NCBI GenBank assembly: GCA_946187935.1
Contig: CAMHSJ010000006.1
Location: forward strand, 25,450 to 89,449
DNA from: an uncultured Clostridia bacterium
GTDB taxonomy: Bacteria; Bacillota; Clostridia; Saccharofermentanales; Saccharofermentanaceae
Length of the DNA stretch: 64,000 nucleotides
Direction: 5' to 3'
Within the stretch, counting starts at the first letter, position 1, and every line of letters starts with the position of its first letter. Below, piece by piece: positions 16,764 through 42,200 of this stretch. The translations under genes were made by a program, and so were the position numbers. The notes under the pieces were generated by a model. That model saw only the letters and a list, made by a program, of their open reading frames with translations, was not told the DNA's origin and searched no databases.

Positions 16764-16770
16764 CTGAAGT

Positions 16771-18597
16771 TTAAAGCGCAGATGAGCTGCCGATCCTCGA
16801 AGCGCCGGCGTCTATCATGGCCTGTGCAGCTTCGGGGGTCCTGATGCCGCCTGCGGCCTTGACCTTGACGCCCCGGGCAACGTTTTGGGCCATGAGCTTA
16901 ACGTCTTCTATGGCCGCGCCGTTCGTGCCGAAGCCCGTGCTGGTCTTGATAAAGTCCGCGCCTGCGCTGCTTACTGCTTTGCAGAGTTTTATCTTCTCTT
17001 CCTCCGTGAGGAAGCATGTCTCGATTATAACCTTGAGTATCGCGCCCTTGGCGTGGACCGCTTCCGCGATCAGGCGGATCTCATTTTCGACCTTATCAAG
17101 ATTGCCGTTCTTGACCTCGTTGATGTTTATTACCATGTCGATCTCAGAGGCTCCGTTGTCTGCCGCATCGATCGCTTCGAACACTTTGACTGCCGTTGTC
17201 TGATAGCCGTTGGGGAAGCCTATTACTGTGCAGATCTTAAGCCTTCCTTCTGCTATCCTAACGCCGTCCCTTACATAGCAGGGAGGTATGCATACGCTCG
17301 CGCAGCCTGAGGATATTGCCTTGTCGATAAGATCTTCGATGTCTTTTATGGTCGCCGTCTGCTTTAAGTTGGTCAGATCCACATAAGATGCGATATTGCC
17401 TTCTTTGGGCGTGTTGTCAATGTCAGGAAATACTCTGGGAAGAGGCCTTCTCATAAGGGCGTTAAAGACTATGCCAGAGATATTGCCAAAGCCTATGAGC
17501 TCGCCCATGTTGTGAGGGACCTCATATCCTTCGCCATAGATAAGGAGCGGGATGGTCTCTCTTGAATGGTCCGTCGAAACTGTGGACGGATCGCAGCCGT
17601 GGTCTGCTGTTATTATGAGAAGATCGTCTCTTCTCATGTTATCAAGGAACGTGCCAAGTGCATCGTCAAATTCATGCATGGCAGCTGCGTATCCCGCGAT
17701 GTCGTTTCTGTGTCCGTACTTCATGTCGAAGTCTACAAGGTTTACGAAGCAAAGGCCGTTAAAGTCCCTGTTTTGTATCTCAAGGAGCTTACTGATCCCG
17801 TCGGTGTTGCCCGATGTAGGGTTGGATTCCGATATCCCGTGCCCTGCGAAAAGGTCGTTGATCTTTCCTACGGATATCGTCTCAAAACCGTAGTTTCTTA
17901 AGATGTCCATCATGTTGGAAGACGGCGGTGCGGCTGAAAAATCGTGCCTGTTTGAAGTTCTCGTATAATTGCCGGCTGTGCCTGTAAAAGGCCTTGCTAT
18001 TATCCTTCCGACATTGTCTTTGCCTGTCATGAACTGCCTCATCTTTGAGCAGATCTTATAGAGTTCTTCCAAGGGAACCACATCTTCATGCGCTGCTATC
18101 TGCAGCACGCTGTCTGCTGAAGTGTAGACGATAAGATCTCCCGTCTTCACGTGCTCTTCGCCGTAGTCTTTTATGACTTCCGTACCGCTGTAGGGCTTGT
18201 TGCAGAGAACGCCTCTTCCCGAGACTTTCCTTATCTCATCTAAGACATATTCGGGGAATCCGTCAGGATATGTGGGCTGCGGAATGGCGGAAAGGATACC
18301 TGCGATCTCCCAGTGGCCTATGGTCGAATCCTTGCCCTGAGACACTTCGCGGACGATGCCGTAAGAACCGATGGGATCAGGCTTTTCGCTTACATTTGCA
18401 AGGTAGTTTCTTTCCCTCTCATCGAAAAGGCCGTCGATGTCAAAAAGCCCCATCCTTGACAGGTTGGGGAAGGGCTTATCTGAGTCTGACAAGACAGCAG
18501 CCAGAGTGTTGCTGCCTTCATCACCGAAGGATGCTGCATCAGGCGCAAGTCCGGTGCCGAAACTGTCTAATACAACAAGAAATACACGCTTTGCCAT
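16771..18597 (-). CDS. deoB: Fusion: phosphopentomutase (DeoB) + deoxyribose-phosphate aldolase (DeoC)
   Basis: VLDSFG, GKDSTIGHWE, IIARPF, DMKYGHR, TADHG in aa 1-385; CTVIGFPNG, EIDMV, KVIIET, FIKTSTGF, KAAGGIR, RIGSS in aa ~400-608. Confidence 0.93.
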   Translation of the reverse strand: MAKRVFLVVLDSFGTGLAPDAASFGDEGSNTLAAVLSDSDKPFPNLSRMGLFDIDGLFDERERNYLANVSEKPDPIGSYGIVREVSQGKDSTIGHWEIAGILSAIPQPTYPDGFPEYVLDEIRKVSGRGVLCNKPYSGTEVIKDYGEEHVKTGDLIVYTSADSVLQIAAHEDVVPLEELYKICSKMRQFMTGKDNVGRIIARPFTGTAGNYTRTSNRHDFSAAPPSSNMMDILRNYGFETISVGKINDLFAGHGISESNPTSGNTDGISKLLEIQNRDFNGLCFVNLVDFDMKYGHRNDIAGYAAAMHEFDDALGTFLDNMRRDDLLIITADHGCDPSTVSTDHSRETIPLLIYGEGYEVPHNMGELIGFGNISGIVFNALMRRPLPRVFPDIDNTPKEGNIASYVDLTNLKQTATIKDIEDLIDKAISSGCASVCIPPCYVRDGVRIAEGRLKICTVIGFPNGYQTTAVKVFEAIDAADNGASEIDMVININEVKNGNLDKVENEIRLIAEAVHAKGAILKVIIETCFLTEEEKIKLCKAVSSAGADFIKTSTGFGTNGAAIEDVKLMAQNVARGVKVKAAGGIRTPEAAQAMIDAGASRIGSSSAL

Positions 18598-27715: not shown

Positions 27716-28753
27716 ATGAAACGCATGGTAAAGACGGGATTTTCGAGAAGCACGGCAGCTACAGTTGCTGTCATACTCATGTGCAGCATCGTGATCGGTG
27801 CATGTGCGGTCGACTATGACAAGTTAAGCGACGGCATCGACAGTGTATCTGACGGTATAAACCAGATAGCGGGCTATACCGAAGAAACGGAAGAGGACAT
27901 AGACGAACCGGAAGAGACAGCCGAGAAGGAAGCCATTCCCACGGTTACGCCTGAGCCTACACAGACTCCCACACCTACTCCTACGCCGACGCCTACCCCC
28001 ACTCCGACTCCCACTCCCACACCTGTGATCGAGAGAGTTGATTTCTCCGAGCTTACGACTGTGCCCATAACGGCTGACTTCTCGGTCGAGTACGAAGAGT
28101 TCAGTGAGACATATCTTACAGAAGACGGCGACGGACTTGTGACATTCTCCGGCACAAGAGCTCTTGTTACCGACAATGATAACGAGTCAGTCCAGAACGC
28201 GATCAACATGATAACCGACGGCGTTTATTCTGAAGCTGAGGGCATCTATAAGAGGATCTCAAGTGAGCTTCAGGCTGAATATGAACTCACGGGCGTTCTT
28301 CCCGAAGAACCTTATGCGGTTACTGTATCTTACGAGGATTCCGATAACGGCAGGCTCTACACGGTGATCATCTCATACGAGTATACCGTTGACGGTGAAG
28401 GCAATACTGAAGGTTATACCTACAGCGCGACATTTGACATGCTCACAGGCCAGTACATCAACATCAACACTATAGCGATAGAACCTGCTGCTCTTAATGA
28501 GGCATTTGCGCTCAAGCTCTCATCAGACCTTAACGCTCTGCCTGAGACAGAGGACGGTCCCGTATTTGATAAGAAGGTAAAGCCGGAAGAGGTCTCCAAC
28601 CTGTTCATCTGCGCGCAGCAGTCAGGCCGCGGAATAGCAGCTGCCGTTATCTACGGTGAGGTAAGAGGAGAGGTATATCACACAACGATCGACTTGAACG
28701 ATTATCAGGGTTACTTAAACAGATACGGAGCCCTGGTGTTCGGCGTTGAATGA
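27716..28753 (+). CDS. Acidic lipoprotein with Pro-Thr linker and possible DUF4163/DUF3298-like domain
   Basis: Lipobox IGAC, PT repeat, ATFDMLTGQYINI motif. Confidence 0.65.
   Translation: MKRMVKTGFSRSTAATVAVILMCSIVIGACAVDYDKLSDGIDSVSDGINQIAGYTEETEEDIDEPEETAEKEAIPTVTPEPTQTPTPTPTPTPTPTPTPTPTPVIERVDFSELTTVPITADFSVEYEEFSETYLTEDGDGLVTFSGTRALVTDNDNESVQNAINMITDGVYSEAEGIYKRISSELQAEYELTGVLPEEPYAVTVSYEDSDNGRLYTVIISYEYTVDGEGNTEGYTYSATFDMLTGQYININTIAIEPAALNEAFALKLSSDLNALPETEDGPVFDKKVKPEEVSNLFICAQQSGRGIAAAVIYGEVRGEVYHTTIDLNDYQGYLNRYGALVFGVE
27947..28024 (+). repeat. (Thr-Pro)n linker coding repeat
   Basis: TPEPTQTPTPTPTPTPTPTPTPTP encoded with varied codons. Confidence 0.9.
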
Positions 28754-28980: not shown

Positions 28981-30375
28981 ATGAAGACAAAGAAGATTAT
29001 TGCTTTGACATTGTCATTGGCAATGGTTCTTGGTGTTGTTGCAGCTTGTAATAAGACTGATGAGTCTGACGCATCTGCAGCTTCTGATGCTTCTGCTGCT
29101 ACTTCTGCAGCTGCATCCGGCGCTACAACAGCAGCACCTGAATCTCAGGCTCCCGAAGCTCAGGTTTCTGAGTACACAGAGCTGACTGTTGCTGATGTTT
29201 CTGATGAGGGCGATGGCGTACTCGTATACGGCTGGAACGATGAGTTCCCTGGTCTCGTAGCTAAGTATTCCAGTGTTGACATCGGAGATCCTGTTCTTAC
29301 AGAGTCCAACAGCTATCAGGCAAAGCTTGACCAGGTTCTTGATTCTGGTGAAGACGCTCCTGACCTCTTTGTATGCGATGCAGACTATGCTTCTAAGTAC
29401 ATGAACTCTGACAACACTCTCCCTATCAACGACCTCGGCATTGCTTACTCTGAGCTTTCTGAAATGTACAACTACACACTTCAGTTCGCTACAGACGATG
29501 ACAATGTAATCAAGGGTCTCGCTTGGCAGGCTTGCCCTTGCGGTGTTTTCTACAACAGAACACTCGCAGAGACATACCTCGGCACACAGGATCCTGACGA
29601 GCTCGCAGCTAAGTTCGCTACATGGGATGATTTCCTTGAATCCGCTCGTGAAGTAAATGAAGCTTCTAACGGCGAAGTTAAGATCGTTTCCGGTATGGAC
29701 GATATCTGGAGAGCTTATCTCAACACACGTTCACAGGGTTGGATCGTAGACGGTGAGCTCTACATCGATCCCGTAATGGAAGACTACTTCGATATGGCTA
29801 AGGCTCTCTACGATGAAGGTCTCACATTCGAGACATCACAGTGGGGCGAGGCTTGGAGCGCTAACATGGCTAACAAGTCTGTAGTTACATATTGGGGACC
29901 TATGTGGCTCTTAAACTTCTGCATGGGCTTCCAGGATGGTTCTAACCCTACACAGGGTGACTGGGGAATCACAACTGCTCCTGGTAACTTCTTCTGGGGC
30001 GGCACATGGATGATGGCTTCTCAGTACTGCGACATGAAGGCTTCTTGCGCTCAGATCATGAGAGACATCGCTATCGACGAAGCTAACCTCCAGGATATGG
30101 CTGAAGGCGGCGAGTTCGTTAACAACATCTCTATCATGACAGCTCTGGCTTCTGACGATTCTTTCGGCGTTGCTAACCTCGGCGGACAGAACCCTCTCGC
30201 AGCTCTCCTTGCAGCAGCTACAACAATCGACAACTCAACAGTTGGCGAGAACGACCAGGCAATCAACGATGCATTCAACACTGTCGTAAATTCTTACGTA
30301 CAGGGCGACATCGCTTCTGTTCCTGATGCTGAGACTCAGTTCGAGGCAGCTCTTGAGGAAGCTGGAATTATCTAA
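28981..30375 (+). CDS. Carbohydrate ABC transporter substrate-binding lipoprotein
   Basis: Lipobox VAAC, Ser/Ala/Thr linker, APDLF, FYNR.LA, YWGPMW, FWGGTW; followed by two CUT1 permeases. Confidence 0.92.
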   Translation: MKTKKIIALTLSLAMVLGVVAACNKTDESDASAASDASAATSAAASGATTAAPESQAPEAQVSEYTELTVADVSDEGDGVLVYGWNDEFPGLVAKYSSVDIGDPVLTESNSYQAKLDQVLDSGEDAPDLFVCDADYASKYMNSDNTLPINDLGIAYSELSEMYNYTLQFATDDDNVIKGLAWQACPCGVFYNRTLAETYLGTQDPDELAAKFATWDDFLESAREVNEASNGEVKIVSGMDDIWRAYLNTRSQGWIVDGELYIDPVMEDYFDMAKALYDEGLTFETSQWGEAWSANMANKSVVTYWGPMWLLNFCMGFQDGSNPTQGDWGITTAPGNFFWGGTWMMASQYCDMKASCAQIMRDIAIDEANLQDMAEGGEFVNNISIMTALASDDSFGVANLGGQNPLAALLAAATTIDNSTVGENDQAINDAFNTVVNSYVQGDIASVPDAETQFEAALEEAGII

Positions 30376-30410
30376 TTCTTAACCGGATTAAATAATTAAC
30401 TAGGTACTTG

Positions 30411-30449
30411 TGCGGGGCAGGGACAAAACCCTGTCCCGCATTTCCTTTT
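30411..30449 (+). terminator. Stem-loop between SBP and permease genes
   Basis: TGCGGGGCAGGG-ACAAAA-CCCTGTCCCGCA then TTTCCTTTT. Confidence 0.75.
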
Positions 30450-30510
30450 AACTGACAACAACAATTACAACAACTTATTCACTATTGGCAAAATTTGGAG
30501 AGTAACAAAG

Positions 30511-32961
30511 ATGGCAAATACGAACAGAAACCATAAGGGTATGAGCTATACCCGTTTTGGATATATTTTCGTCGCGCCGTTTGTAATTGCATACTGCATC
30601 TTCAGCCTCTATCCGCTCCTTACCACATTCTGGTATTCAACAGCGAACATGCAGGCTACAACTTCAGGTTTCTGGGGTTTCTCAAATAAAGAAGTTTATT
30701 ATGACCGTTATCTTGACTTAAACGAAGTTTACGACGATCTTTCCAAGGTAGACATCGATTCTGCCGGCTATAACAAGATCAAGAACTTCTTCTCAACTCA
30801 GGACTATGCGGACAGATATAAGCCTCTTGATGAAGATGGCATCAATGCAATTATAAGCATTGGAACTTCTGCAGGATTCTCATCGACAACAGTTTCTGAA
30901 CTTCAGGCTGCTCTCGATCAGAATGATGTAGGACAGATTTCACAGGCAAGTTACGAAGAACTCAAGAACTGGAGAAAAGGATTCTCTGACGTTACTATCA
31001 CACTGACAGATAAGCTCTCAAGCTACAGCAACGCGCTCGACAGCATCGTTAATGCCGAGACAGCTGAAGAAGGTGAAGAGGAAACAACTGTCACACCTGA
31101 AGTCATCATCGCAAGTGACAACTATGTCAAGTTTGTCGAGAGCTTAGAAACTCTTGATCTTAGCGCTGATCAGCAGATCCTTGTAGACTATCTCCTTTCC
31201 AAGACATCTTATACATCCCTCAAGGATTATTTTGATGCAATCACAGACGGTGAAGCTTCTATGGCTGACCCGGCTTTCTACTATCTGATCTCTAACCTCA
31301 ATTCACCTTCCGTTACAAACGAAGCAGGCGAGAAGATTGAGGCTATTTCTGTTTCTTTCATCGGTGATGTTGAGACATATCTCAAGTCCGAGGTCTGGAA
31401 GGACACGATCAACAATTCAAACTCTTACTCAGAGCTTGCAGATTACATTTCAGGTGACAAGGCACTCACTGAAAACATGGATCAGCTCTATGCTGATATC
31501 AAGGATTTCAATGATGCCGGAATCATCAGTGCTGAAGTTCTTACTATCAAGGACGGCGAAGTAGTTGTTTCAGACGATCAGTCAGGCGACAACTTCCTCG
31601 CAGTTTACGATAAGAACTATGTAAGCGCAGACACAGCTTATCAGTCAAATCCTGATGAGATCGCTGCAGCTATGCAGATCTCTAACCTCGGTTCTTACTA
31701 TGAACTCGGTGCAAGAACAAAGCTGGTAGCTATGGGCGTTGAAATCGATAAGTACATTTCTTACGGCAGCAAGTTCGACATCAGCAAGTATAAGGATTAC
31801 AAGGCTTCAGTAGGCATGGCTGACGTTCTCACAATGGCTAAGTACAACGAGATCGATGAACTGCGTAAGGCTGAGCGTGTTGAGAAGGCTAAGGCCAAGA
31901 TCGAAGAAGCTGAGGCTAAGCTCCCTGAAGTTCAGGCTGCTTACGATGCAGCTATCGCAGCTGATACAGCTGCAGGCATCGAGAATCCTGCTTCTGTTGT
32001 AAACACAGATTCTTACAAGGCATATGCTGCTTTAAGAGCAGTTGAGCTCACTATCCAGAAGAACGAGTCCATCGTTTCTGACCCTAAGGGCGTTCTCGAG
32101 GAAGTTAACGCTAAGAAGATGTTCATCTCCGTTGGTCTTGACAACTATAAGGAGATCTTCAGCAACAAGACGAGATTCAGCTATGTAGCAGGTGCATTTG
32201 TTACTACAGCAGTTATGTGGATCATCGGTTTCATCCCTCAGATCCTCCTCGCGCTCTTGCTCTCCGCATGGTTCACAGACGTTAAGCTCAGCCTTAAGGG
32301 TCTTAACGCGATGAAGGCTTTGATGTACCTGCCTAACGTTATCACGGCAGCTACTATCGCTATCTTCTTCAGAAGACTCTTCGCTTATTCATCAGGCGGC
32401 GCTCTTTCTGCATCACAGCTCGTACTCCGTGCGTTCGGTGATAAGGATGGTTACAACTTCTTTGCAAGCCCTTGGGCAACAAGATTCATCGTATGCTTCA
32501 TCAACTTCTGGATGTGGTATGGTAACACAATGATCGTTCTCATTGCAGGTATCACATCTATCAATGAGTCGATCTATGAATCTGCACAGCTCGACGGTGC
32601 AAGCTCATTCCAGACTTACACGAAGATAACGCTCCCGCTTCTGAGACCTATCATCCTCTACACATTGGTTACTTCCCTCATCGGTGGTCTCCAGATGTTC
32701 GATATCCCTCAGAACCTCAACATGAACCCTGCACTTGTTAACTTCAACGGCGTAATGATCCCTTCGATCAGAACAGTCCTTATGTACGTTAACAACGCAG
32801 CATTCGGTAAGCAGGACGTCAAGCTCGTAGGTATCGCTTCTGCGGTTTCCGTACTCCTGTTCATCGTAACATCACTCCTTTCCATCTTCATCTTCTACAT
32901 CATGAGAGATAAGGATGCTGCAAAGGCTAAGAAACTTATGAAGAGGGGAGGTACAAAGTAA
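30511..32961 (+). CDS. Carbohydrate ABC permease (MalF-like) with ~480-aa extracytoplasmic insertion
   Basis: TM1 GYIFVAPF...YPLL; VGLDNY at aa 541; EAA loop IYESAQLDGA; ITLPLLRP; FDIP. Confidence 0.92.
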   Translation: MANTNRNHKGMSYTRFGYIFVAPFVIAYCIFSLYPLLTTFWYSTANMQATTSGFWGFSNKEVYYDRYLDLNEVYDDLSKVDIDSAGYNKIKNFFSTQDYADRYKPLDEDGINAIISIGTSAGFSSTTVSELQAALDQNDVGQISQASYEELKNWRKGFSDVTITLTDKLSSYSNALDSIVNAETAEEGEEETTVTPEVIIASDNYVKFVESLETLDLSADQQILVDYLLSKTSYTSLKDYFDAITDGEASMADPAFYYLISNLNSPSVTNEAGEKIEAISVSFIGDVETYLKSEVWKDTINNSNSYSELADYISGDKALTENMDQLYADIKDFNDAGIISAEVLTIKDGEVVVSDDQSGDNFLAVYDKNYVSADTAYQSNPDEIAAAMQISNLGSYYELGARTKLVAMGVEIDKYISYGSKFDISKYKDYKASVGMADVLTMAKYNEIDELRKAERVEKAKAKIEEAEAKLPEVQAAYDAAIAADTAAGIENPASVVNTDSYKAYAALRAVELTIQKNESIVSDPKGVLEEVNAKKMFISVGLDNYKEIFSNKTRFSYVAGAFVTTAVMWIIGFIPQILLALLLSAWFTDVKLSLKGLNAMKALMYLPNVITAATIAIFFRRLFAYSSGGALSASQLVLRAFGDKDGYNFFASPWATRFIVCFINFWMWYGNTMIVLIAGITSINESIYESAQLDGASSFQTYTKITLPLLRPIILYTLVTSLIGGLQMFDIPQNLNMNPALVNFNGVMIPSIRTVLMYVNNAAFGKQDVKLVGIASAVSVLLFIVTSLLSIFIFYIMRDKDAAKAKKLMKRGGTK

Positions 32962-33839
32962 TGAGTAATAATGAAACCAAGCTCAAGAGTAAAGCAGCTT
33001 CGATCAAGGCTTACAGTACACTCGTTTACGTAGTAGTTATCTTCTTCGCGATCCTCGCAGTAATCCCTTTCTGGTTCATGTTCATGAACGCTACATGGGA
33101 TTCCTTCTCGATCCAGTCAGGCATCAAGCTCTGGCCTCAGATCCCCGGTGGTATCAAGCAGCTTATTACAAACTGGTCTAACCTCCAGGCAAGAGCGTCA
33201 TTCAGCTTCCCTGTCGGATTCCTGAACTCATTCATTATCTCTACATCAGCAACTGCTCTTACAGTTTACTTCTCAGCTATGACTGCATACGGTCTCTCCG
33301 TATACAGCTTCAAGGGACAGAAGACATTGTTCGCAGTTATCGTAGGCGTAATGATGGTTCCTACAGCAGTAAACATCACAGGTTTCTACCGCGAGATGAG
33401 TGCTATGCACCTCCTCGGAACAAAGTGGCCTTTGATCCTCCCCGCTATTGCAGCACCTTCAACTGTATTCTTTATTAAGCAGTATCTTGATACTTCACTT
33501 TCTAAGGAGATCATTGAGGCTTCGAGAATCGACGGCGCAGGCGAGTTCTTTACATTCAACAGGATCTGCCTCCCTATCATGGTTCCGGCTCTCGCTACAC
33601 AGGGTATCTTCAGCTTCCTCGGATCTTGGAACAACTTCTTCGCTCCTTCGATCCTCTTAAGCAAGAACGAAGATAAGACGATCCCTTTGATGGTAGCTCA
33701 GCTCTACGGTGACCGTTACGTAGACTACGGTATGATCTATACGGGTCTTTCAGCATCCGTATTCCCGATCATCGTTGTTTACATCTTCCTGCAGCGTTAC
33801 ATCATTTCCGGTGTATCCGCAGGCGGTGTCAAGGAGTAA
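32961..33839 (+). CDS. Carbohydrate ABC permease (MalG-like)
   Basis: NSFIIS, AYG, MMVP, EAA loop EIIEASRIDGA, WNNFF. Confidence 0.95.
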   Translation: MSNNETKLKSKAASIKAYSTLVYVVVIFFAILAVIPFWFMFMNATWDSFSIQSGIKLWPQIPGGIKQLITNWSNLQARASFSFPVGFLNSFIISTSATALTVYFSAMTAYGLSVYSFKGQKTLFAVIVGVMMVPTAVNITGFYREMSAMHLLGTKWPLILPAIAAPSTVFFIKQYLDTSLSKEIIEASRIDGAGEFFTFNRICLPIMVPALATQGIFSFLGSWNNFFAPSILLSKNEDKTIPLMVAQLYGDRYVDYGMIYTGLSASVFPIIVVYIFLQRYIISGVSAGGVKE

Positions 33840-33949: not shown

Positions 33950-36031
33950 ATGGGTTATAAGGTTAAACACAGACGCGGTAGACCCGGGGATAGGAAGAAG
34001 CGCGTCATAAGAAATGTTCTTATCACACTTGCGGTAATACTGGTGCTCCTGGGCGCCGGTCTTTTCGCGGGTTATAACTACTATAATTCCGCAATGAAGC
34101 TCAAGGGCGAGGCTAACATGCTCAAGAGCTCACTGGCTCTCTGCCTGTCATCTCTTAAGACAGGGGATACGGTTGCTGCAGATAATGCGATCGCAGTCAT
34201 TGATGAGACATCCCATACGATGAGGCAGGAACTTGAGAAGAGCAAGTGGAAGATCCCCTGCATGATACCTAAGATAGGACAGGATTTTGACACATGCATC
34301 ATGTGTCTGGATCTTGTTGATAAGGCATCAGAGACTCTGCTCAAACCCGCATCAGCAATGATAAAGCAGTCAGGCATGCCGACGGCTGACATTATAGATC
34401 TTGACAACATGGGTCCAGAACTTGGAGATAAGCTCTATCAGTATGCAGACATGATAGATGCCCTCTGTCCTGCGATAGACAGCCTTATGACGGATCTGGA
34501 AAGCATCCCTGCATTTAACACGCCTCAGCTTGAGGAAGTAATGACCAAGTACAGGTCGCTGCCTGCACAGACAAAAGAGACCATGCCTCTTATCGAGAGA
34601 ATGCCATCCGAGTTCTTAAGGCCTGCAGCCGACGTAATGTGCGCAAAGCCGTTCAGCTCCCTTAAGGCTGACGGCGGCATAGATACTACGGTAATACTGG
34701 CCTATATGGAGTTAGAAGATGAGATCAGGCCCTTTATTGGTGAGGTTCAGAATGAGCTGAGCGAAGGAACGCTTTTGAAGGATAATCCTGACCAGCAGGC
34801 CAAGCTCACTAACAAGCTCGATGAGATGGCAGAGCTCTTGGACAAGCTCGACCGCTACGAACCGCTCATGAAGGCATTCATAGGTGACGGCACGGACAAG
34901 ATGTATCTTATAGTTGCCCAGAACAGTGCTGAGCTTCGTGCCTGCGGCGGTTTCCCGGGGCAGGTGGGCACGGTAACGATAGAAGACGGCATCTTAAGAT
35001 TCGGAGATTTCACTTCAGTAGTAAACGTCATTCCTCAGGACTTCGATCCGTCGATAGAATTCGAACCCGCAGAATCAGATCTTTTCCTCGACAACTGGTA
35101 TATCGCAAAGGCGAGGAGCGCATCGGCAAATCCTCACTTCCCGAGAGTTGCTGAGATCTGGGCATCTTCATATGCTCTTGATTCAGGCATAACGCCTGAC
35201 GGAGTCATTTCATTGACACCACACATCATCCAGAGTCTGATGGCCATTACGGGTCCTGTGACGTTGTCAAACGGTGTTACGCTCGATCAGGATTACTGCG
35301 TTTGGTATCTCCAGCACGATGTGTATTTCGAATACTTTGGCGACCCTCAGTACAGGGGAGAAGCAAATGATATAACGGACGCGCTTTTCGCTGAGACTGC
35401 AAATGCCGTGGAAGACAAGCTCATGGAAGATCCGAGCATCAAGAATTCACTGGCTCTTCTTGAGATACTTGAAGCATCATCAGATGACCGCGTGTTCATG
35501 ATGTGGATGGCTGATGAAACTGAGCAGGAGACCGTAAGGCAGCTTGGGTATTCAGGAAGTCTTAACTATGATCCGGAAAACCCTGAGATCGGCGTGTTCT
35601 ACAGCATCAATGCAGCTAACCGCTTAGGACCTTATGTCAACCTGGATGTTCAGGTCGGAGAAGGCACCGAGACAGGATCAGGTGAAGTCACATATCCTGT
35701 AACGGTAACTCTTAAGAATACGATCGATGATGCAACGGTTGAGTTCGGAAGGGGCAACGGTTACCTGACAAGTTCAAGATATGCAGGCGACATGAAGTCC
35801 GTTATCTATTTCTTTGCACCTGCAGGCGGCTCGATCGATCCTGTTGAAAACGATGCTGATATCAAGATGAGCGAGAATGAATATATGGGTCTTGATGTCT
35901 TCTATAACACGAAGTTCTATGTTAAGCCCGGTGAGACAGTCGTTTTTACTTATAACGTAACATGCCAGGCAGGCACAGAGCCTGTAGTCAGAGTTACGCC
36001 TACTCTTACTGAATACAACACTGAAGGATGA
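33950..36031 (+). CDS. DUF4012-like membrane-anchored protein
   Basis: Basic N-term plus one TM, helical region, YLIVAQNSAELRACGGFPG, SANPHFP, DGVISL motifs. Confidence 0.75.
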   Translation: MGYKVKHRRGRPGDRKKRVIRNVLITLAVILVLLGAGLFAGYNYYNSAMKLKGEANMLKSSLALCLSSLKTGDTVAADNAIAVIDETSHTMRQELEKSKWKIPCMIPKIGQDFDTCIMCLDLVDKASETLLKPASAMIKQSGMPTADIIDLDNMGPELGDKLYQYADMIDALCPAIDSLMTDLESIPAFNTPQLEEVMTKYRSLPAQTKETMPLIERMPSEFLRPAADVMCAKPFSSLKADGGIDTTVILAYMELEDEIRPFIGEVQNELSEGTLLKDNPDQQAKLTNKLDEMAELLDKLDRYEPLMKAFIGDGTDKMYLIVAQNSAELRACGGFPGQVGTVTIEDGILRFGDFTSVVNVIPQDFDPSIEFEPAESDLFLDNWYIAKARSASANPHFPRVAEIWASSYALDSGITPDGVISLTPHIIQSLMAITGPVTLSNGVTLDQDYCVWYLQHDVYFEYFGDPQYRGEANDITDALFAETANAVEDKLMEDPSIKNSLALLEILEASSDDRVFMMWMADETEQETVRQLGYSGSLNYDPENPEIGVFYSINAANRLGPYVNLDVQVGEGTETGSGEVTYPVTVTLKNTIDDATVEFGRGNGYLTSSRYAGDMKSVIYFFAPAGGSIDPVENDADIKMSENEYMGLDVFYNTKFYVKPGETVVFTYNVTCQAGTEPVVRVTPTLTEYNTEG

Positions 36032-36103: not shown

Positions 36104-36469
36104 ATGAGTAACATGGGAAATCTTTTAGAGTACAAAGGCTATCACGCCACAGTTGTATATGATGTTGAGAGTTCGATGCTTCACGGCAAGATATTGGGAA
36201 TAAACGATCTGGTTACTTTTGAAAGTGACAGTTCACGTGAGATCGTAAAAGAGTTCCATTCTGCGGTTGATGAATATCTCGATTTTTGTGTTGAGGTCGG
36301 CAAGGAGCCTGAGAAAGAGTATAAAGGCAGCTTCAATATCCGCATTGAACCTGAAATGCATAAGAATCTGTCTTTGATTGCTTCTTCAAATTCGGAATCG
36401 CTCAACAGCTGCGTGGAGCGTGCTTTGAAAATGTATCTTGAACTTGAAACAATGAAAGAAGCAGACTGA
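36104..36469 (+). CDS. hicB: HicB-family antitoxin (no adjacent hicA)
   Basis: LEYKGY...LHGKILGINDLVTFE...FHSAVDEYL..C...KEPEKEYKGSFNIRI.PEMH (HicB + RHH). Confidence 0.9.
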   Translation: MSNMGNLLEYKGYHATVVYDVESSMLHGKILGINDLVTFESDSSREIVKEFHSAVDEYLDFCVEVGKEPEKEYKGSFNIRIEPEMHKNLSLIASSNSESLNSCVERALKMYLELETMKEAD

Positions 36470-36598: not shown

Positions 36599-39088
36599 AT
36601 GAAATTTGGACATTTCGATGACGCCCGTAAAGAATACGTCATCAATACCCCAAGAACACCTTATCCATGGATCAACTATTTAGGCAATCAGGGCTTCTTC
36701 TCCCTGATCTCCAACACCGCAGGCGGATATAGTTTCTATATGGATGCAAGACTCCGCAGGATCACACGTTACCGCTATAACAATGTCCCTCTCGATATGG
36801 GCGGACGTTATTTCTACATCAACGACAACGGCACAGTCTGGAATCCGGGCTGGTCACCTGTCAAGACAGAGCTTGATGAGTATGAGTGCCGCCACGGTAT
36901 GGGCTACACGATCATCAACGGCAAGAAGAACGGACTTCGCGCTGAAGTTACATTCTTCGTTCCCCAGGATTACGATGGCGAAGTACAGCAGGTAGTCCTC
37001 ACCAACGAAGGCTCTGAAGCCAAGAGCTTCTCCATCTTCTCCATGGCAGAGTGGTGCCTCTGGGACGCTCAGGATGACTGCACGAACTTCCAGCGTAACT
37101 TCTCAACAGGCCGTGTTGAGATCTTGGGTTCCACCATCTATCACGTAACAGAGTACAGAGACAGACGTAACCACTACGCTTTCTATACTGTTAATGACGA
37201 TATCGACGGCTACGATACAGACCGTGATTCATTCTTAGGCGGCATCTACAACGGCTGGGACAACCCTGTTACCGTTTTCGAGGACAAGCCTTCCAACTCA
37301 TTTGCAGACGGCTGGTCTCCTATCGCTTCACACTACAAGAAGGTTACTCTTGCACCCGGTGAGACAAAGACTCTTATCTACATCCTGGGCTATGCTGAGA
37401 ATCCTCAGGACAAGAAGTTCTCTGATACAAAGCCTGAAGGTCTCATGACAAGAGAGGCTTGGGTCTTAAACAGGGAGAAGGCTGATGCCATGATCGAGAA
37501 GTTCAACACACCTGAGAAGGTTGCAGCCGGACTTGACGAGCTCCGTGCTACATGGGACAAGCTCCTCTCGATCTTCAAGGTCGACACGCCTGACGATAAG
37601 GTCAACCGTATGGTCAATATCTGGAACCAGTATCAGTGCATGGTTACATTCAACCTCTCACGTTCTGCTTCCTACTTCGAGTCCGGTATCGGCCGTGGTA
37701 TGGGCTTCAGAGATTCTAATCAGGATATCCTCGGATTCGTACATCAGATCCCTGAGCGTGCAAGAGAGAGAATCATCGACATCGCTTCCACACAGATGCC
37801 TGACGGCGGATGCTATCACCAGTATCAGCCTCTTACCAAGAAGGGTAACTCCGATATCGGCGGTGACTTCTCAGATGACCCGCTCTGGATGATCCTCTCC
37901 GTTGCGGCGTACATCAAGGAGACAGGCGACTGGTCCATCCTTGACGAGAAGGTTCCTTATGACAACGACGATTCGCTCGCTCAGCCGATGCTCGATCACC
38001 TCACGGTATCCTTCTATCACATCGTAAACAACCTCGGACCTCACGGACTGCCTCTTGCAATGAGAGCTGACTGGAACGACTGTATCAACCTCTCATGCTT
38101 CTCAGATACACCCGGTGAATCCTTCCAGACATACACCAACCCGAAGTTCAAGGCAGAGGGCGGCTACTCCAAGGTAGCTGAGTCTGTATTCGTAGCAGCT
38201 CTGTTCACATACACAGGTCCTGCTTATGTAGGCATCTTAGAGCACTTGGGCAAGGCTGACGAAGCTGCCAAGGCTCAGGCTGAGATCGACAAGATGAAGA
38301 AGGTCGTTATGGAATCCGCATTCGACGGCGAGTGGTTCCTCAGAGCTTACGATGCTAACGGCGAGAAGATGGGTTCAGCTGAGTGCGAAGAAGGTAAGAT
38401 CTTCATCGAACCCCAGGGCTTCGCTGTTATGTCTGAGATCGGTAAGGACGTCGGAGCTGACATCAAGACTCTCAACTCCATCGACAAGTACTTAAACTGC
38501 GAGTTTGGTCTCGTTCTCAACAACCCTGCATTCACAAAGTACTATATCCAGTACGGCGAGATCTCCACATATCCGGGCGGATACAAGGAGAACGCAGGTA
38601 TCTTCACACACAACAATGCATGGATCATCTGCGCAGAGGCTTATGCCGGCAGAGGTGAGAAGGCTTTCGAGTACTACTCCAAGATCGCTCCTGCATTTAC
38701 TGAAGAGACATCTGATATCCACAAGACAGAGCCTTACGTTTACGGTCAGATGATCGGCGGTAAGGATGCCAATAACTTCGGTCAGGGCAAGAACTCATGG
38801 CTCACAGGTACGGCTGCTTGGAACATGGTAGCTATCTCACAGTACATCTTAGGCGTTAAGCCTGAGTTCGACGGCCTCAGGGTAGATCCTTCCATCCCTG
38901 CAGCTTGGGACGGCTTCACAGCTACACGTCAGTTCAGAGGCGATACATATGAGATCACCATCAAGAACCCTGATCACGTTAACAAGGGCGTTAAGTCACT
39001 TACTGTTGACGGCGCAGCAGTTGAAGGCTGCATCGTACCTGTAGCAGGCGACGGTAAGACACACAAGGTTGAGGTAGTTCTCGGATAA
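36599..39088 (+). CDS. Cellobiose phosphorylase (GH94)
   Basis: [73 protein letters not shown]. Confidence 0.92.
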
Positions 39089-39138: not shown

Positions 39139-39175
39139 TAACCCCGTTGCTCCTTTTTTGCGGCGGGGTTAATTG
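39139..39175 (+). terminator. Intergenic stem-loop between the two GH94 genes
   Basis: ATTAACCCCGTTGC-N9-GCGGCGGGGTTAAT; extended -10 TGTTATAAT immediately downstream. Confidence 0.55.
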
Positions 39176-39212
39176 TTATAATTTCGGTATAAAGCTTAGG
39201 AGGTACCTAATT

Positions 39213-42200
39213 ATGGGATTTAGAGCAGAAATGGCCAGGCAGGAACTTACTCCTGCAGCGGATCTTTTGACCGCGAAATTCGGCAGCAAGGTAACAGGCG
39301 GCAAGTCCGCACAGTATGTGAGATTCGGCAAGGATCCTGTAGTTATAGGTGTATGCGGCCTCAAGTTCGATTCCATAATAGCGAGCGTCATCTCAGGTTC
39401 TGATGCGGTATATGGCGCGCTCAGATCTATAGTCTCTGACGGCGTCAGTGTCCTTTTCGACGTATCTGGCGCTGATCTTGCAGTTTATAGCGAGAAGGGC
39501 GGCGCTGTCGAAGCAGCTGATATCGCAGCAGATGTTAAGCAGGCTGTCAAAGATCTCATCAATGAGTCTAATGAGTGGGGCGGCGTCCTTAAGGAGAACG
39601 GCGAACTCGAGTTCGACCCTGCATCTCCTGCTCCGGGACCTCACTACTATACCAATATGCTGATAGGCAACAGGATCTCATTTAAGCATCCTCTGCAGTC
39701 TACTCCTAAGAGCACCGTAGGCGCATTGGGCGGCGGTTCTTTCCGTTCGCACGCTGACTGTCAGGTCCTCGCAACAAGATGGGACTACCTGCCTGAAGAA
39801 AACGGCTTCCCCGCTAACCGCCAGTTCTACCTGGTAAAAGATGGCAAGAAGATCTTCTACTCCGGTGCAGCTATTGCTGAAGGCCTCAAGTCAGTAAGGA
39901 CCGTTCATTCACAGAACAGGACGGTAATAAGCTACGAGCTTACATGCGGCCTTAAGGTCACGAGAACGATCTTCATAGTTCCCCAGCACGAGAACATGCC
40001 TCTTGCATCTGAAGCCCAGATGATCGACATCGTTAACAACTCTTCCGAAGACATGGATCTTCGTATCGTTTACACAGGTATGTTCGGTACGAACGAGACA
40101 CACGCTCTTTCTGAGGACGTTATCTTTACGACGGTAGTTGCCCAGTCACAGGTATTCTTTAACGAGGACAACGAGATCAGGGCCGTATCGATCAACCCCA
40201 ACCCCAAGTGGACAAAGGGCAATATCAGATTCTCAGAGATGGTCGTACATACAGACGGCGGTGCCATCTTCCCTGACCAGTACTGCGTAAGGTATGCAGA
40301 CTTCGTCGGAAGCGGAAGCCTCGAGGATCCTGAGTTCATCGCTCCTTTGGCTTCCAGACCTTCCAGAAAGGGTCCGGGATTCTTTGCCATGTCCATTCCT
40401 TTCAGCGTAAAGGCAGGGGCAAGCGTAAGAGCAGACAATCTTACATGCCTCTCATCTGATGCCGTTAACGAGGACTTCATTCCTGACGTTACTCCCGCTG
40501 TCGAAGCTGAGGCTGTTGCTGACTATATCTCCGATCCTGCAAACCTTGCATCTGACCTTAAGTCAGTCATCGATTTTACCAGGAAGTATGCAGGCTACAT
40601 GCAGATCAGCCACGCTGACAAGGACTTCGAGGCCTATGTCAACAACAACCTCCCGTTCCAGGTCTTCTACCAGACATTCGTATCAAGGTCTTTGGACTGG
40701 ACGCAGAAGGGCTACAGAGAGATAGGTTTCCGTGAGATCCAGGATATCTTCGCATCCATGTACTACTTTGCAGGCATGGGCGAGACAGGCTTCGTAAAGA
40801 AGATGCTCGCAGGCTGGATCGAGAACGTTTACGAGGAAGGCTACACGAACCACAACTTCTACTGGATCGGCAAGGAGCCCGGCTGGTGGTCTGATGACGG
40901 ACTCTGGCTCCTGCAGGCTATAGACAGATACTTAGGCCTTACAGGCGATTACGACTTCCTCTCTGAAGAGTTCGTAATGGCAGGCACCAAGGAGAAGAAG
41001 ACTGATCCGGGCGTAAAGCGCAAGCTTTCTGAAACACTCAAGGCTATCCTCACATACAGTGGCAAGATCTCACTCGGCCGTCACGGCATCCCTCTTATCG
41101 ACAGGGCTGACTGGAACGACTGCTTAAGAGTCGATCCCGACTGTATCTCAGGCAAGGATAAGATCGCCGCTTATAAGGAGCAGCTCGCTGCATCCGGCAA
41201 GGCATACGGCGAAGTCCCTTACGATTCCGAGTATTCTGAGTCTGTCATGAACGGATTCCTGCTCAAGGTTGCGATAGACTGCGGCAAGTCCATGTTCGAA
41301 AAGACGGGCGATGCGGCATTTGCAGCTGAGCTTGCCGGGATGTCATCTGCGCTCGCAGCAAGGCTTCAGGAAAACTGCTGGAAGAACGACTTCTTTGCAA
41401 GAGTTCTCTTTAACCGCAGCAATAAGCCCGAGCTTAAGTATCTCGGCGCAGCAGGCGACGGCCTGAGCGTAGAAGAGGGTCACCCCGGTTCTTACTTCCT
41501 CAACGCTTTCTCATGGTCACTTTTGGCAGGCGTTGCAACAGAAGAGCAGATCTCCACGATGCTCGATTCCTTAGACAAGTACTTAAGATCACCTTACGGC
41601 TTCAGGCTCTGCTCTACGGTCGACTATCCGAAGATCGCGCCCAAGATCGACGTTGCCCTGTACTATCCGGGCGATCGTGAGAACGGCGGCGTATTCAAGC
41701 ATGCCAACATGATGGCCTGCTCAGCTATGCTCAAGGCAGCTAACACTGTTGAGGATAAAGCTCTGGCAGAAAGACTCACCGAGACAGCTTACTGGATCAT
41801 CGACAAGATCCTGCCGTTCAAGACCCTTAAGACTCCTTTCAAGAGCTGCGGCAACCCGAGATGGTGCACACAGTACAACAACAGCGAGTCAGGCGAGAAC
41901 ATCGGACCTACGCTTTCAGGTACATCCACATGGCTCCTCCTGTCACTGTTCCAGTGCTTCGGCGTAGAGTTCACATCAGACGGGCTTGTCTGTGAGCCTC
42001 TCCTCAGGAATGAAGAGACTTCACTCGAAGTAAGGGTAGAAGGCGCCAAGGCAGGATATGACATCAGGATCACCAAGCCCGAAGGCTTCAGAAGAAGCAA
42101 GGAAGGCATCAAGCTCGTCGTTGACGGCAGCCCTGCTGAAGGCACGAAGGTACCTGTATTCACTGACGGCAATACGCACAGCGTAGAGATCAGTCTCTGA
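39213..42200 (+). CDS. Cellodextrin phosphorylase (GH94)
   Basis: PAPGPH.Y.N.LIGNR, EENGFPANRQFYL, QKGYREIGFREIQD, DRADWNDCL, GDRENG.VFKHA, ENIGP.LSGT, matching the C. thermocellum CDP pattern as recalled; start ATG 39213 after AGGAGG. Confidence 0.9.
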   Translation: MGFRAEMARQELTPAADLLTAKFGSKVTGGKSAQYVRFGKDPVVIGVCGLKFDSIIASVISGSDAVYGALRSIVSDGVSVLFDVSGADLAVYSEKGGAVEAADIAADVKQAVKDLINESNEWGGVLKENGELEFDPASPAPGPHYYTNMLIGNRISFKHPLQSTPKSTVGALGGGSFRSHADCQVLATRWDYLPEENGFPANRQFYLVKDGKKIFYSGAAIAEGLKSVRTVHSQNRTVISYELTCGLKVTRTIFIVPQHENMPLASEAQMIDIVNNSSEDMDLRIVYTGMFGTNETHALSEDVIFTTVVAQSQVFFNEDNEIRAVSINPNPKWTKGNIRFSEMVVHTDGGAIFPDQYCVRYADFVGSGSLEDPEFIAPLASRPSRKGPGFFAMSIPFSVKAGASVRADNLTCLSSDAVNEDFIPDVTPAVEAEAVADYISDPANLASDLKSVIDFTRKYAGYMQISHADKDFEAYVNNNLPFQVFYQTFVSRSLDWTQKGYREIGFREIQDIFASMYYFAGMGETGFVKKMLAGWIENVYEEGYTNHNFYWIGKEPGWWSDDGLWLLQAIDRYLGLTGDYDFLSEEFVMAGTKEKKTDPGVKRKLSETLKAILTYSGKISLGRHGIPLIDRADWNDCLRVDPDCISGKDKIAAYKEQLAASGKAYGEVPYDSEYSESVMNGFLLKVAIDCGKSMFEKTGDAAFAAELAGMSSALAARLQENCWKNDFFARVLFNRSNKPELKYLGAAGDGLSVEEGHPGSYFLNAFSWSLLAGVATEEQISTMLDSLDKYLRSPYGFRLCSTVDYPKIAPKIDVALYYPGDRENGGVFKHANMMACSAMLKAANTVEDKALAERLTETAYWIIDKILPFKTLKTPFKSCGNPRWCTQYNNSESGENIGPTLSGTSTWLLLSLFQCFGVEFTSDGLVCEPLLRNEETSLEVRVEGAKAGYDIRITKPEGFRRSKEGIKLVVDGSPAEGTKVPVFTDGNTHSVEISL

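Follow-up and report, generated by a model that had tools for sequence, protein, structure and literature searches.

An undescribed, conserved helical domain at the MalF-P2 site in the permease of a predicted cellodextrin ABC importer from a narrow clade of Clostridia

The window analysed here, a 64-kb stretch of DNA (64,000 nt), carries a transporter locus whose features all lie on the forward (+) strand. An 816-aa MalF/UgpA-type permease, assigned to the TMD subunits of CUT1 (carbohydrate uptake transporter 1) type I ABC importers, is encoded at 30511..32961; the open reading frame had been called there in the initial annotation and was confirmed, with an RBS-like GGAGAG located 9 nt 5′ of its ATG. 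The gene that immediately precedes the large permease gene in all related loci, here at 28981..30375, encodes a 464-aa, CebE-like SBP lipoprotein (lipobox VVAAC, low-complexity linker of ~45 aa) of the cellobiose/cellodextrin-binding fold family (SBP_bac_1, 29.6 bits). Its best PDB sequence match was 8bfy, described as ‘cellobiose-binding’ (E 3.5e-13), and its gene was covered by metatranscriptome contigs at a depth of 15-100. An intrinsic-terminator-like hairpin (30410..30441), consisting of a 13-pair stem with nine G-C pairs and a T-rich tail, occupies the SBP-permease intergenic region, and RNA contig depth drops ~10-fold over it. The hairpin is probably an attenuator that sets the excess of SBP over permease; an internal terminator between SBP and TMD genes has precedent in operons of cellulolytic Clostridia (PMC9045158).

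The start of the gene for a 292-aa MalG/UgpE-like partner permease (32961..33839) overlaps the stop codon of the large permease gene, and the partner is 71-98% identical across related loci. The large permease is thereby adjoined by both a second, MalG-like TMD and a cognate cluster-B/family-1 SBP, the setting that characterises CUT1 systems, and this arrangement was kept in all related loci. Downstream lie two GH94 genes. The cellobiose phosphorylase gene (36599..39088; Pfam GH94 domains; full-length match to 3qde, 1298 bits) was kept downstream of the transporter wherever the contig reaches far enough, and the cellodextrin phosphorylase gene (39147..42200; full-length matches to 8h6h and 5nz7, ~930 bits), whose true start is probably the ATG at 39213, was also conserved in related loci. 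A gene for a conserved 345-aa lipoprotein (27716..28753; lipobox VIGAC, a linker with acidic and (TP)n sequence, a ~235-aa C-terminal domain) sits immediately upstream of the SBP gene in every locus that bears the insert described below, while genes farther upstream may differ. This lipoprotein gave no Pfam or PDB match, and it is possibly an accessory protein. No MsmK-type ATPase gene was found in the 64-kb window, and the sole ABC_tran ORF in it (9042-9791, 249 aa) accompanies an SBP_bac_3 amino-acid system. In Firmicutes, MsmK ATPases are usually shared and unlinked. Because a CebE-like SBP and cellobiose and cellodextrin phosphorylases occur in conserved order, the locus can be assigned on sequence grounds to the cellobiose/cellodextrin importers, a known kind of system, and this context gives strong backing to the cellodextrin substrate that had been guessed in the initial annotation. 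Relatives of the permease that have no insert are linked to LacI and GH94 genes too, which counts toward a cellobiose/cellodextrin substrate.

The large permease begins with a K/R-rich cytoplasmic N-terminus, TM1 (aa ~17-45), and a conserved FWGF (aa 54-57), together encoded by 30511..30681. The hydropathy peak of TM1 falls at aa 23-33, and this segment is collinear with TM1 of 6-TM relatives; the alignment of aa 16-70 with the TM3 region of MalF was weak and non-significant. An acidic, all-helical extracytoplasmic insert follows (aa 58-540; 30682..32130), and then the permease core, TM2-TM6 (32131..32961), in which the EAA coupling motif occupies aa 690-709 (nt 32578-32637). The Pfam domain BPD_transp_1 was detected at aa 568-795 only (38.4 bits vs. 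a cut-off of 26.4), and the part aligned by NCBIfam MalF and by the PDB MalF chains was aa 537-794 only, with the core matching MalF 255-504 in the PDB chains. Core alignments were obtained with MalF, UgpA, AlgM1, and SugA, and the best partial NCBIfam matches were MalF, UgpA, and GlcT. The EAA motif reads E690-S-A692-Q-L-D-G696 ... I706-T-L-P709, and was compared with the consensus EAA-x3-G-x9-I-x-LP of the cytoplasmic loop that touches the ATPase. Residues E690, A692, G696, I706, and P709 are invariant in the 19-member family alignment, as are G542 and N545 of VGLDNY, and all of the EAA residues except I706 remain invariant when insert-less relatives are compared. The protein differs from MalF proper: the NF008232 profile scored 66 bits against a cut-off of 392 and matched at profile positions 261-511 only, and one hydrophobic segment precedes the insert, where MalF proper has an 8-TM layout with two extra N-terminal TMs. 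Its sequence places the 816-aa protein among the MalF-type membrane subunits of CUT1 type I ABC importers.

The insert had initially been placed at 30688-32120 (aa 60-537), flanked by FWGFSN (aa 54-59) and VGLDNY (aa 541-546). Both flanking motifs were read in the translation and the insert itself stood, with its borders refined to 30682-32130 (aa 58-540). Residues ~58-540 stand in place of a ~20-residue loop of the nearest insert-less relatives, in what appears as a clean insertion. Its position is the TM1-TM2 outer loop, where E. coli MalF has its P2 loop, and its end coincides with the restart of the alignment at MalF residue ~255-261. The K/R-rich N-terminus, the single TM, and the alignment place the insert outside the cell at the P2 site, as predicted from the sequence. 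The insert is acidic and Tyr-rich, as first described (pI 4.2, net charge -46, Tyr 6.6%), and was found to contain no hydrophobic segment. Its expected helical nature was reproduced by AlphaFold2, which gave ~24 helices and one small beta hairpin, with a mean pLDDT of 90.1 and a pTM of 0.68 from 19 sequences only. The stretch that had been called coiled-coil-like corresponds to a 46-residue helix, one arm of a predicted long helical hairpin (aa 442-523; 31834..32079), whose two arms (aa 442-487 and 500-523) lead back to TM2. The hairpin tip (aa ~487-500) is variable and rich in indels in the family alignment, and one related-strain contig lacks 132 nt at the hairpin. An acidic loop (aa 184-191, the AEEGEEET region; 31060..31083), predicted with pLDDT < 50, also differs in length among homologues and falls in indel-rich columns.

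Searches for relatives of the insert extended over sequence families and solved structures. Pfam searches with the permease and all 19 inserts (E up to 1) returned nothing for the insert beyond sporadic noise in single members, NCBIfam matched the permease core and nothing in the insert, and sequence searches of the PDB, with a single query and with a profile, gave no insert match. Foldseek was run on the PDB with the full-length and insert-only models and on BFVD with the insert model. The best E values for the insert were 0.36 in the PDB and 0.31 in BFVD, with TM-scores <= 0.15, and the matches, all of them long helical proteins with rmsd values of 25-45 Å, were rejected as meaningless. When 1.84 billion representative proteins were searched exhaustively with a profile, 19 hits emerged, comprising the permeases, their fragments, and a single weak match. 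This last hit was a 3068-aa Bacteroidota T9SS protein that matched profile positions 336-403 six times, at 2-12 bits each; it was judged probably spurious because the six matches fall in its Ig-like repeat units. Comparisons by hhalign detected no internal repeats among four insert segments (probabilities <= 1%), and no likeness of the insert to the DUF4012 neighbour protein or to the 345-aa lipoprotein (probabilities < 1%).

Known module types were sought as well. Pfam gave no hit to CBM, cohesin, dockerin, or SLH modules at E up to 1 in the 19 members, and the insert model, being helical save for one beta hairpin, does not have the make-up of a beta-sandwich or EF-hand-like module. No SBP Pfam family was found in the 19 inserts and no SBP structure among the Foldseek hits; the insert does not have the periplasmic-binding-protein fold that defines the SBD-fused TMD class (GlnP/OpuABC type). 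A P2-like Ig fold was not matched by sequence or by Foldseek, and the MalF chain 4jbw_F matched over only ~250 columns, in keeping with the size of the TM core. The initial annotation had described the fold as unknown, and this description holds for the known sequence families and solved structures in Pfam, NCBIfam, the PDB, and BFVD. Literature searches turned up no description of a large extracytoplasmic domain in sugar ABC permeases.

The insert was recovered from independent data. In an independent rumen metagenome (X4), a contig of 2208 nt runs gap-free over 30400-32244, both insert borders are spanned by independent rumen metagenome contigs, and the insert is covered by metatranscriptome contigs from rumen samples; no reads mapped from the ~6% sampled of each of two 2026 rumen runs. 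The insert-bearing architecture was found in ~16 species-level genomes, and ~20 protein clusters keep a single open frame of ~800-840 aa. The gap-free contig and the shared architecture of the 16 genomes settle the question of misassembly that accompanied the initial annotation. Protein length is 796-839 aa in most members (912 aa in one), with insert identity down to 32%. Carrier genomes belong to Saccharofermentans, Mageeibacillus, and other Clostridia, and come from rumen, horse faeces, and other sources; the insert is confined to a narrow clade, with 19 hits among the 1.84 billion representative proteins.

The insert is under purifying selection, with a dN/dS of 0.11-0.20, about twice that of the core. 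The effective number of codons (ENC) is 36.6 for the insert, 32.0 for the SBP gene, 35.5 for the permease core, and 47-50 for neighbouring housekeeping genes. The codon style was claimed early on to be common to the insert and the SBP gene, and this was borne out by a codon-preference correlation of 0.93 and similarly low ENC values. The strong codon bias of the insert suggests high expression of the insert-bearing permease. Purifying selection and strong codon bias also support the view that the insert is long-resident, and it is transcribed in rumen samples. Judged by its pLDDT, dN/dS, kept length, and largely aromatic set of invariant residues, the insert is predicted to be a folded, functional extracytoplasmic module.

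The best-characterised large domain at this site is P2 of E. coli MalF (MalFGK2-MalE; PDB 2r6g, 3fh6, 4jbw), an Ig-like domain of ~185 residues (MalF 91-276) between TM3 and TM4 with a reach of ~3 nm, which binds MalE throughout the cycle (Kd 7-22 µM) and has been regarded as a ‘unique’ extended periplasmic domain of the maltose system (PMC6906923). The two systems belong to the same class (CUT1, type I importer), each with a MalG-like partner and an SBP, and both have a large folded outer domain at the same topological site, with MalF TM3-TM4 equivalent to TM1-TM2 of 6-TM permeases. They differ in that the insert has 483 residues and is predicted to be all-helical with a long hairpin, whereas P2 is Ig-like and ~185 residues long; in that the window permease has 6 TMs vs. 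8 for MalF; in the substrate, a beta-1,4-gluco-oligosaccharide by prediction vs. maltodextrin; and in the SBP, which, unlike that of the E. coli maltose system, is a lipoprotein in a monoderm.

The insert-less, GH94-linked CUT1 permeases of Clostridia (Kineothrix, [Clostridium] polysaccharolyticum, Anaeromicropila, and Caproiciproducens), which span 336-345 aa in the alignment, are collinear with the window permease and 47-52% identical to it in the core. Their SBPs are homologous and their gene order, SBP-permease-permease, is the same. In these permeases, ~20 residues lead from TM1 to F[VN]GLxNY, and their loci are without the upstream 345-aa lipoprotein gene; in three of the five, a GH94 phosphorylase gene adjoins one for a LacI regulator, and the window cluster has no such regulator. 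Among cellulolytic Firmicutes, the same physiological role is filled by the C. thermocellum CbpB system, R. cellulolyticum CuaABC, and the A. bescii cello-oligosaccharide transporter, and SBP-dependent cellobiose/cellodextrin uptake that feeds GH94 phosphorylases is described in PMC9601137, PMC5663094, and PMC12838199. No large extracytoplasmic domain has been reported for these permeases in the literature consulted (including PMC13543919), a distinction that is drawn from descriptions rather than sequences. An outer domain is also attached covalently to the importer TMD in SBD-fused TMDs, such as the GlnPQ/OpuA type and the Bdellovibrio MalE-MalF fusion (PMC6906923). In those fusions the extra domain has the SBP fold, whereas in the window it is an internal loop insertion and the SBP has a gene of its own.

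In an Oscillospiraceae clade that comprises Saccharofermentans, Mageeibacillus, and relatives and is found in rumen, hindgut, and other anaerobic settings, a short TM1-TM2 loop has been replaced by a 480-residue domain. The reading that we favour, tentatively and by analogy, is that this domain is a non-homologous counterpart of MalF-P2, which would serve as a docking and retention platform for the SBP at the pump. The importer would consist of the lipid-anchored CebE-like SBP, the large permease, the MalG-like permease, and an ATPase encoded elsewhere, and imported sugars would pass to the cytoplasmic cellobiose and cellodextrin phosphorylases. The insert would project from the membrane beside the docking site, bind the tethered SBP, and hold it positioned on the transporter throughout the transport cycle. 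Such retention might raise the efficiency of capture-to-transport for scarce cellodextrins in a competitive fibre-degrading community, with coupling to ATP hydrolysis proceeding via the ordinary EAA motif, as in MalFGK2. The SBPs paired with insert-bearing permeases have an extra conserved N-terminal segment, E[FY]TELxVADVxDEGD, which is absent from the five insert-less SBPs examined; this segment could be a mere divergence of two clades. A mirror-tree comparison of insert and SBP distances, controlled for MalG and the TM core, gave no support for docking (partial r -0.23, p 0.94). The P2 analogy rests on position, and the fold of the insert is unrelated to that of the Ig-like P2. An extra tether is not obviously needed because the SBP is already lipid-tethered through a ~45-residue linker; linker length was also tried as a correlate of the insert and rejected, the linkers of insert-less systems being equally long. 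At 2.6 times the size of P2, the 480 residues also seem to exceed the apparent need of docking alone.

It appears unlikely that the helical domain itself binds cello-oligosaccharides or beta-glucan by exposed aromatics, concentrating sugars at the transporter and handing them to the SBP somewhat as helical SusD does at SusC. The predicted import of cellodextrins would suit such a role, and aromatic residues (Tyr, Phe, or Trp) account for 14 of the 24 invariant positions of the insert, with Tyr making up 6.6% of the whole insert; all-helical glycan binders, such as SusD, do exist. However, the simplest reading of conserved aromatics in such a domain is that they belong to its core, CBMs do not typically have so strongly acidic a surface, and neither Pfam nor Foldseek revealed likeness in sequence or fold to CBMs, SusD, or other sugar-binding proteins.

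The predicted hairpin, with its 46-residue helix and its variable, indel-rich tip, raises the thought that the domain and hairpin form a strut, which places the transporter in the wall zone or S-layer of the monoderm or shields it, with surface variation driven by phage or predator pressure and no direct part in substrate delivery. The insert evolves as fast as the neighbouring surface lipoprotein (mean distance 0.58 vs. 0.59), and its dN/dS relative to the core points the same way. This spacer or anchor role is nevertheless rather improbable. No SLH, LysM, PG-binding, or other wall-binding signature was found by Pfam, there is no evident reason for a strut on this transporter in this clade alone, and the codon bias and strict retention in ~16 species fit a role in the performance of the transporter itself. 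Similarly doubtful is the proposal that the insert is a new fold acting as a hood or antenna at the transporter mouth, where it would recognise cellodextrins or cage the liganded SBP. If true, type I importers would have a third architecture for delivering substrate, in addition to free or lipid-anchored SBPs and to SBD-TMD fusions, and it would have arisen in cross-feeding rumen bacteria, which vie for cellodextrins freed by cellulolytic neighbours.

Docking of a different extracytoplasmic protein, for example the 345-aa lipoprotein (27716-28753), a surface glycoside hydrolase, or a sensor, in a multi-protein uptake complex, is very unlikely. The adjoining position of the lipoprotein gene in every insert-bearing locus and the equally narrow range of its family speak for it, as does a partial Mantel r of 0.29 (p about 0.02) between insert and lipoprotein; this correlation is weak, however, and may stem from the fast evolution of both proteins. 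Moreover, the lipoprotein gene has ordinary codon usage (ENC 49 vs. 32-37 for the transporter genes), and because it has almost no metatranscriptome coverage, the lipoprotein does not appear to be expressed in matching amounts. The conserved cluster also contains no glycoside hydrolase with a secretion signal. An artefact, whether misassembly, a fused gene, or decaying non-functional sequence, can be regarded as refuted by the species genomes and open frames, the gap-free contigs across both borders, a dN/dS far below 1, and the confidently predicted structure.

What is new here is an undescribed, conserved helical domain on the permease of a predicted cellodextrin importer, in a narrow clade; the kind of transporter is already known, and the ‘undescribed system’ of the initial annotation is narrowed to this domain. 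The locus provides a second, independent, and much larger domain at the MalF-P2 site of the textbook type I importers, its fold being without a relative among the solved and viral structures of the PDB and BFVD. Its carriers are common in rumen fibre communities, where the cellodextrin importer appears to be highly expressed. A natural comparison is at hand because insert-bearing and insert-less relatives can be paired, and experiments are feasible because a cultured carrier, Ruminococcaceae bacterium YRB3002, exists. If the insert binds the SBP, as in the docking model that we favour, it would represent the convergent evolution of an SBP-retention device; if it proves to bind glycan, it would define a new class of carbohydrate-binding module. 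Either way, the insert may help to determine how well its carriers compete for rumen cellodextrins.

The open reading frame at 30511-32961 (+) translates into an 816-aa permease, in which, judging by similarity to known families, only the two ends are permease-like. The Pfam BPD_transp_1 match is confined to aa 568-795 (38.4 bits, compared to a cut-off of 26.4), the NCBIfam models MalF, UgpA, and GlcT match at aa ~537-796, and the PDB chains of MalF, AlgM1, and SugA align to the same C-terminal part (aa ~537-796). The motifs between which the initial annotation had placed an insert, FWGFSN at aa 54-59 and VGLDNY at aa 541-546, were found at precisely those positions in the translation. Alignment with the nearest insert-less relatives (336-345 aa in the alignment, core identity 47-52%) revealed that aa ~58-540 are a clean insertion, taking the place of the ~20 residues by which TM1 is otherwise separated from the F[VN]GLxNY motif. 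The insert has a pI of 4.2, a net charge of -46, and a Tyr content of 6.6%, and no hydrophobic segment was detected within it. Since the K/R-rich N-terminus of the permease is followed by a single TM, the insert is placed outside the cell. Its end is the exact point at which alignment to E. coli MalF restarts (residue ~255-261), and as the extracytoplasmic P2 loop of MalF spans residues 91-276, between TM3 and TM4 (PMC6906923), the insertion site is the positional equivalent of P2.

AlphaFold2 modeling of the insert alone, from a 19-sequence alignment, gave a mean pLDDT of 90.1 and a pTM of 0.68. The predicted domain consists of ~24 helices and one beta hairpin (protein aa 344-353), with a low-confidence acidic loop at aa 184-191, and a long helical hairpin (aa 442-487 and 500-523) is predicted to return towards TM2; the tip of this hairpin is the most variable and indel-richest part of the insert in the alignment. 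No internal repeat was detectable, no consistent Pfam family was found across the 19 inserts, and the insert profile had no match among PDB sequences. Foldseek searches of the PDB (to April 2026) and BFVD with the insert model returned best E values of 0.3-0.4 and TM-scores of ≤0.15, with the whole domain as the query, which may hide sub-domain matches. The full-length model recovered MalF alone, over ~250 columns, a length fitting the TM core. Searching 1.84 billion representative proteins with an HMM profile and without filters yielded 19 hits, comprising permeases, their fragments, and one T9SS giant protein, the last of which was judged spurious, its match being weak and repetitive. Direct comparison ruled out homology to the neighboring DUF4012 protein and lipoprotein. 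Within the reach of these tools, and of the folds in the PDB and BFVD, the insert is a clade-restricted domain of an undescribed family and fold. Two family members from the profile search differ in architecture: P0027 (912 aa) carries a still larger insert (aa 61-635), and P0033 (525 aa), which may be a fragment, begins inside the insert and seems to carry part of the helical hairpin twice.

When the insert alone was compared by word index with 5.8 billion proteins, it matched 20 clusters, whose full-length members (805-839 aa, insert identity 32-81%) are labeled as ABC transporter permeases of Saccharofermentans MAGs, and nothing else. Scanning of 185,579 species genomes with one peptide pattern, which sets a lower bound, located at least 16 loci, all in Saccharofermentans, Mageeibacillus, or unnamed Clostridia; their named sources include rumen, sheep duodenum, and horse faeces, and one belongs to a cultured isolate (Ruminococcaceae bacterium YRB3002). 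Across six close pairs, dN/dS (Nei-Gojobori) lay at 0.11-0.20 in the insert, compared to 0.06-0.10 in the TM core; purifying selection thus acts on the insert, about twofold more relaxed than on the core. In this comparison (30511-32961 vs L004-L008, L004 being the closest relative and L008 the isolate), the dS of the TM core was itself roughly half the insert value in five pairs (e.g., 0.35 vs 0.72), and about one-third in the sixth; codon selection may be stronger in the core, or lineages may have recombined. The biased codon style that had been noted for the insert and the substrate-binding protein (SBP) gene is borne out by ENC values (insert 36.6, core 35.5, SBP 32.0, cellobiose phosphorylase 36.9, compared to 47-50 for neighboring housekeeping genes) and by a codon-preference correlation of 0.93 between the two, which speaks against recent acquisition of the insert. 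Four rumen metatranscriptomes yielded contigs over the SBP gene, at a depth of 15-100, over the insert, at ~1-6, and over the MalG-like gene, contig depth being a rough guide to expression only.

The SBP (28981-30375, +), a lipoprotein with a ~45-aa low-complexity linker, has as its closest solved relative 8bfy, described as 'cellobiose-binding' (E 3.5e-13). A MalG-like partner permease (+, Pfam/NCBIfam) lies directly after the large permease, its start overlapping the stop codon of the latter. Downstream are GH94 genes for a cellobiose phosphorylase (CBP; 36599-39088, +; full-length match to 3qde, 1298 bits) and a cellodextrin phosphorylase (CDP; +; full-length matches to 8h6h and 5nz7, ~930 bits). 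The mechanical reading frame of CDP opens at TTG 39147, and the shorter form from ATG 39213 is probably the real one, because the solved-enzyme alignment starts near its residue 10. Upstream of the SBP gene lies that of a 345-aa lipoprotein (27716-28753, +), in which a VIGAC lipobox and an acidic and (TP)n linker are followed by a C-terminal domain of ~235 aa. Neither Pfam nor the PDB holds a match to it, it belongs to a very narrow family, and in insert-bearing loci its gene always directly precedes that of the SBP. Wherever contigs are long enough, related loci repeat the order lipoprotein, SBP, large permease, MalG-like, CBP, CDP. The SBP relative, the MalG-like partner, the two phosphorylases, and the conserved order identify the transporter as a cellobiose/cellodextrin CUT1 importer, a known kind of system. 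Clusters of insert-less relatives read LacI, SBP, permease, permease, with a GH94 gene as well in three of five. No MsmK-type ATPase gene was found within the window; in Firmicutes CUT1 systems the ATPase gene usually lies apart from the transporter cluster. A strong terminator-like hairpin (30410-30441, +; 13 stem pairs, T-rich tail) separates the SBP and permease genes, and metatranscriptome contig depth drops ~10-fold across it. Both fit control of the SBP:TMD ratio by internal terminators, as PMC9045158 describes for such operons.

CBP shares 93-94% amino acid identity with its counterparts at six related loci (L006, L007, L008, L011, L014, and L015), though its neighbors are far more diverged (SBP 45-68%, large permease 39-59%, CDP 66-67%), which could be due to extreme constraint, or to recent exchange or gene conversion of CBP alone. 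The very high RNA depth on CBP is unreliable, because this near-identity lets reads of other species map there. A DUF4012 membrane protein (693 aa; 33950-36031, +) and a HicB-family antitoxin-like gene (36104-36469, +) lie between the MalG-like gene and CBP; among the fetched loci, the former has a homologue only in the closest relative and the latter in none. In run X26, which is labeled a metatranscriptome but whose contigs may include DNA, one contig has 36036 joined to 36501, leaving the HicB gene out and pointing to a strain polymorphism. At two related loci (L001 and L007, ~16100-18000), a protein with periplasmic-binding-protein-like sugar-sensor and GGDEF diguanylate cyclase domains is encoded between the two GH94 genes; it is absent from the cluster in the window, and its domains hint at c-di-GMP signaling tied to cellodextrin use in some relatives.

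The evidence establishes topology, position, folding confidence, selection, expression, and substrate context; as to the function of the insert, which is inferred, we tentatively favor a larger, non-homologous counterpart of MalF-P2, in which the insert would serve as a platform to bind the lipid-tethered SBP and position it at the transporter. P2, to our knowledge the only characterized large domain at the TM1-TM2 equivalent site, does exactly this. Its Kd for MalE is 7-22 uM, and it does not detach at any stage of the cycle (PMC6906923). The platform is also favored because the co-expression and codon bias of the insert go with the transporter genes and not with the neighbors, and because a conserved segment, E[FY]TELxVADVxDEGD (aa ~62-80, after the linker and ahead of the first beta strand), is common to the SBPs of insert-bearing systems and absent from all five insert-less SBPs aligned; it may make contacts or simply mark the clade. 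Against it count the lack of excess insert-SBP co-variation (r -0.23, p 0.94; partial Mantel test, 15 loci), SBP linkers that are equally long in insert-less systems, and a size of 480 residues, far beyond what P2 needs. It is unlikely, though credible, that the insert is instead a helical module for glycan capture; the 14 aromatic residues among its 24 invariant positions suggest this, but it resembles no sugar binder. An envelope strut or shield seems a more distant prospect. That the insert docks some other protein, for instance the conserved lipoprotein of 345 aa, is improbable: the two co-vary weakly (partial r 0.29, p ~0.02), whereas the lipoprotein gene has low codon bias (ENC 49) and a low RNA signal. 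That the insert is an artefact has a negligible chance and is already refuted, 30400-32244 being spanned gap-free by a 2208-nt contig of X4, a bovine gut metagenome run unrelated to the window, and 30460-31977 being covered by a 1518-nt contig from a second run (X1). In X1, a contig skips 132 nt at the helical hairpin tip (31791-31924) and its flanks do not match the window; it comes from a related strain or species whose tip is shorter, in keeping with the indels among homologues.

The permease belongs to the CUT1 TMDs, having BPD_transp_1, the EAA motif, a MalG partner, and an SBP. It is not MalF proper (66 bits, compared to a cut-off of 392), which has eight TMs, whereas the permease has six and lacks the Ig-like P2, nor is it an SBD-TMD fusion, because the insert does not have an SBP fold. 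No cellulosome or CBM modules were detected in the insert. Literature searches turned up no account of a comparable domain. The P2 loop of the maltose transporter is described as 'unique' in a 2019 review (PMC6906923), and domains of this kind go unmentioned in one from 2026 on glycoside transporters (PMC13543919). The system is thus of a known transporter class, with an undescribed domain in a narrow clade. To the specialist it is notable and experimentally attractive, though by itself it opens no long-standing question.
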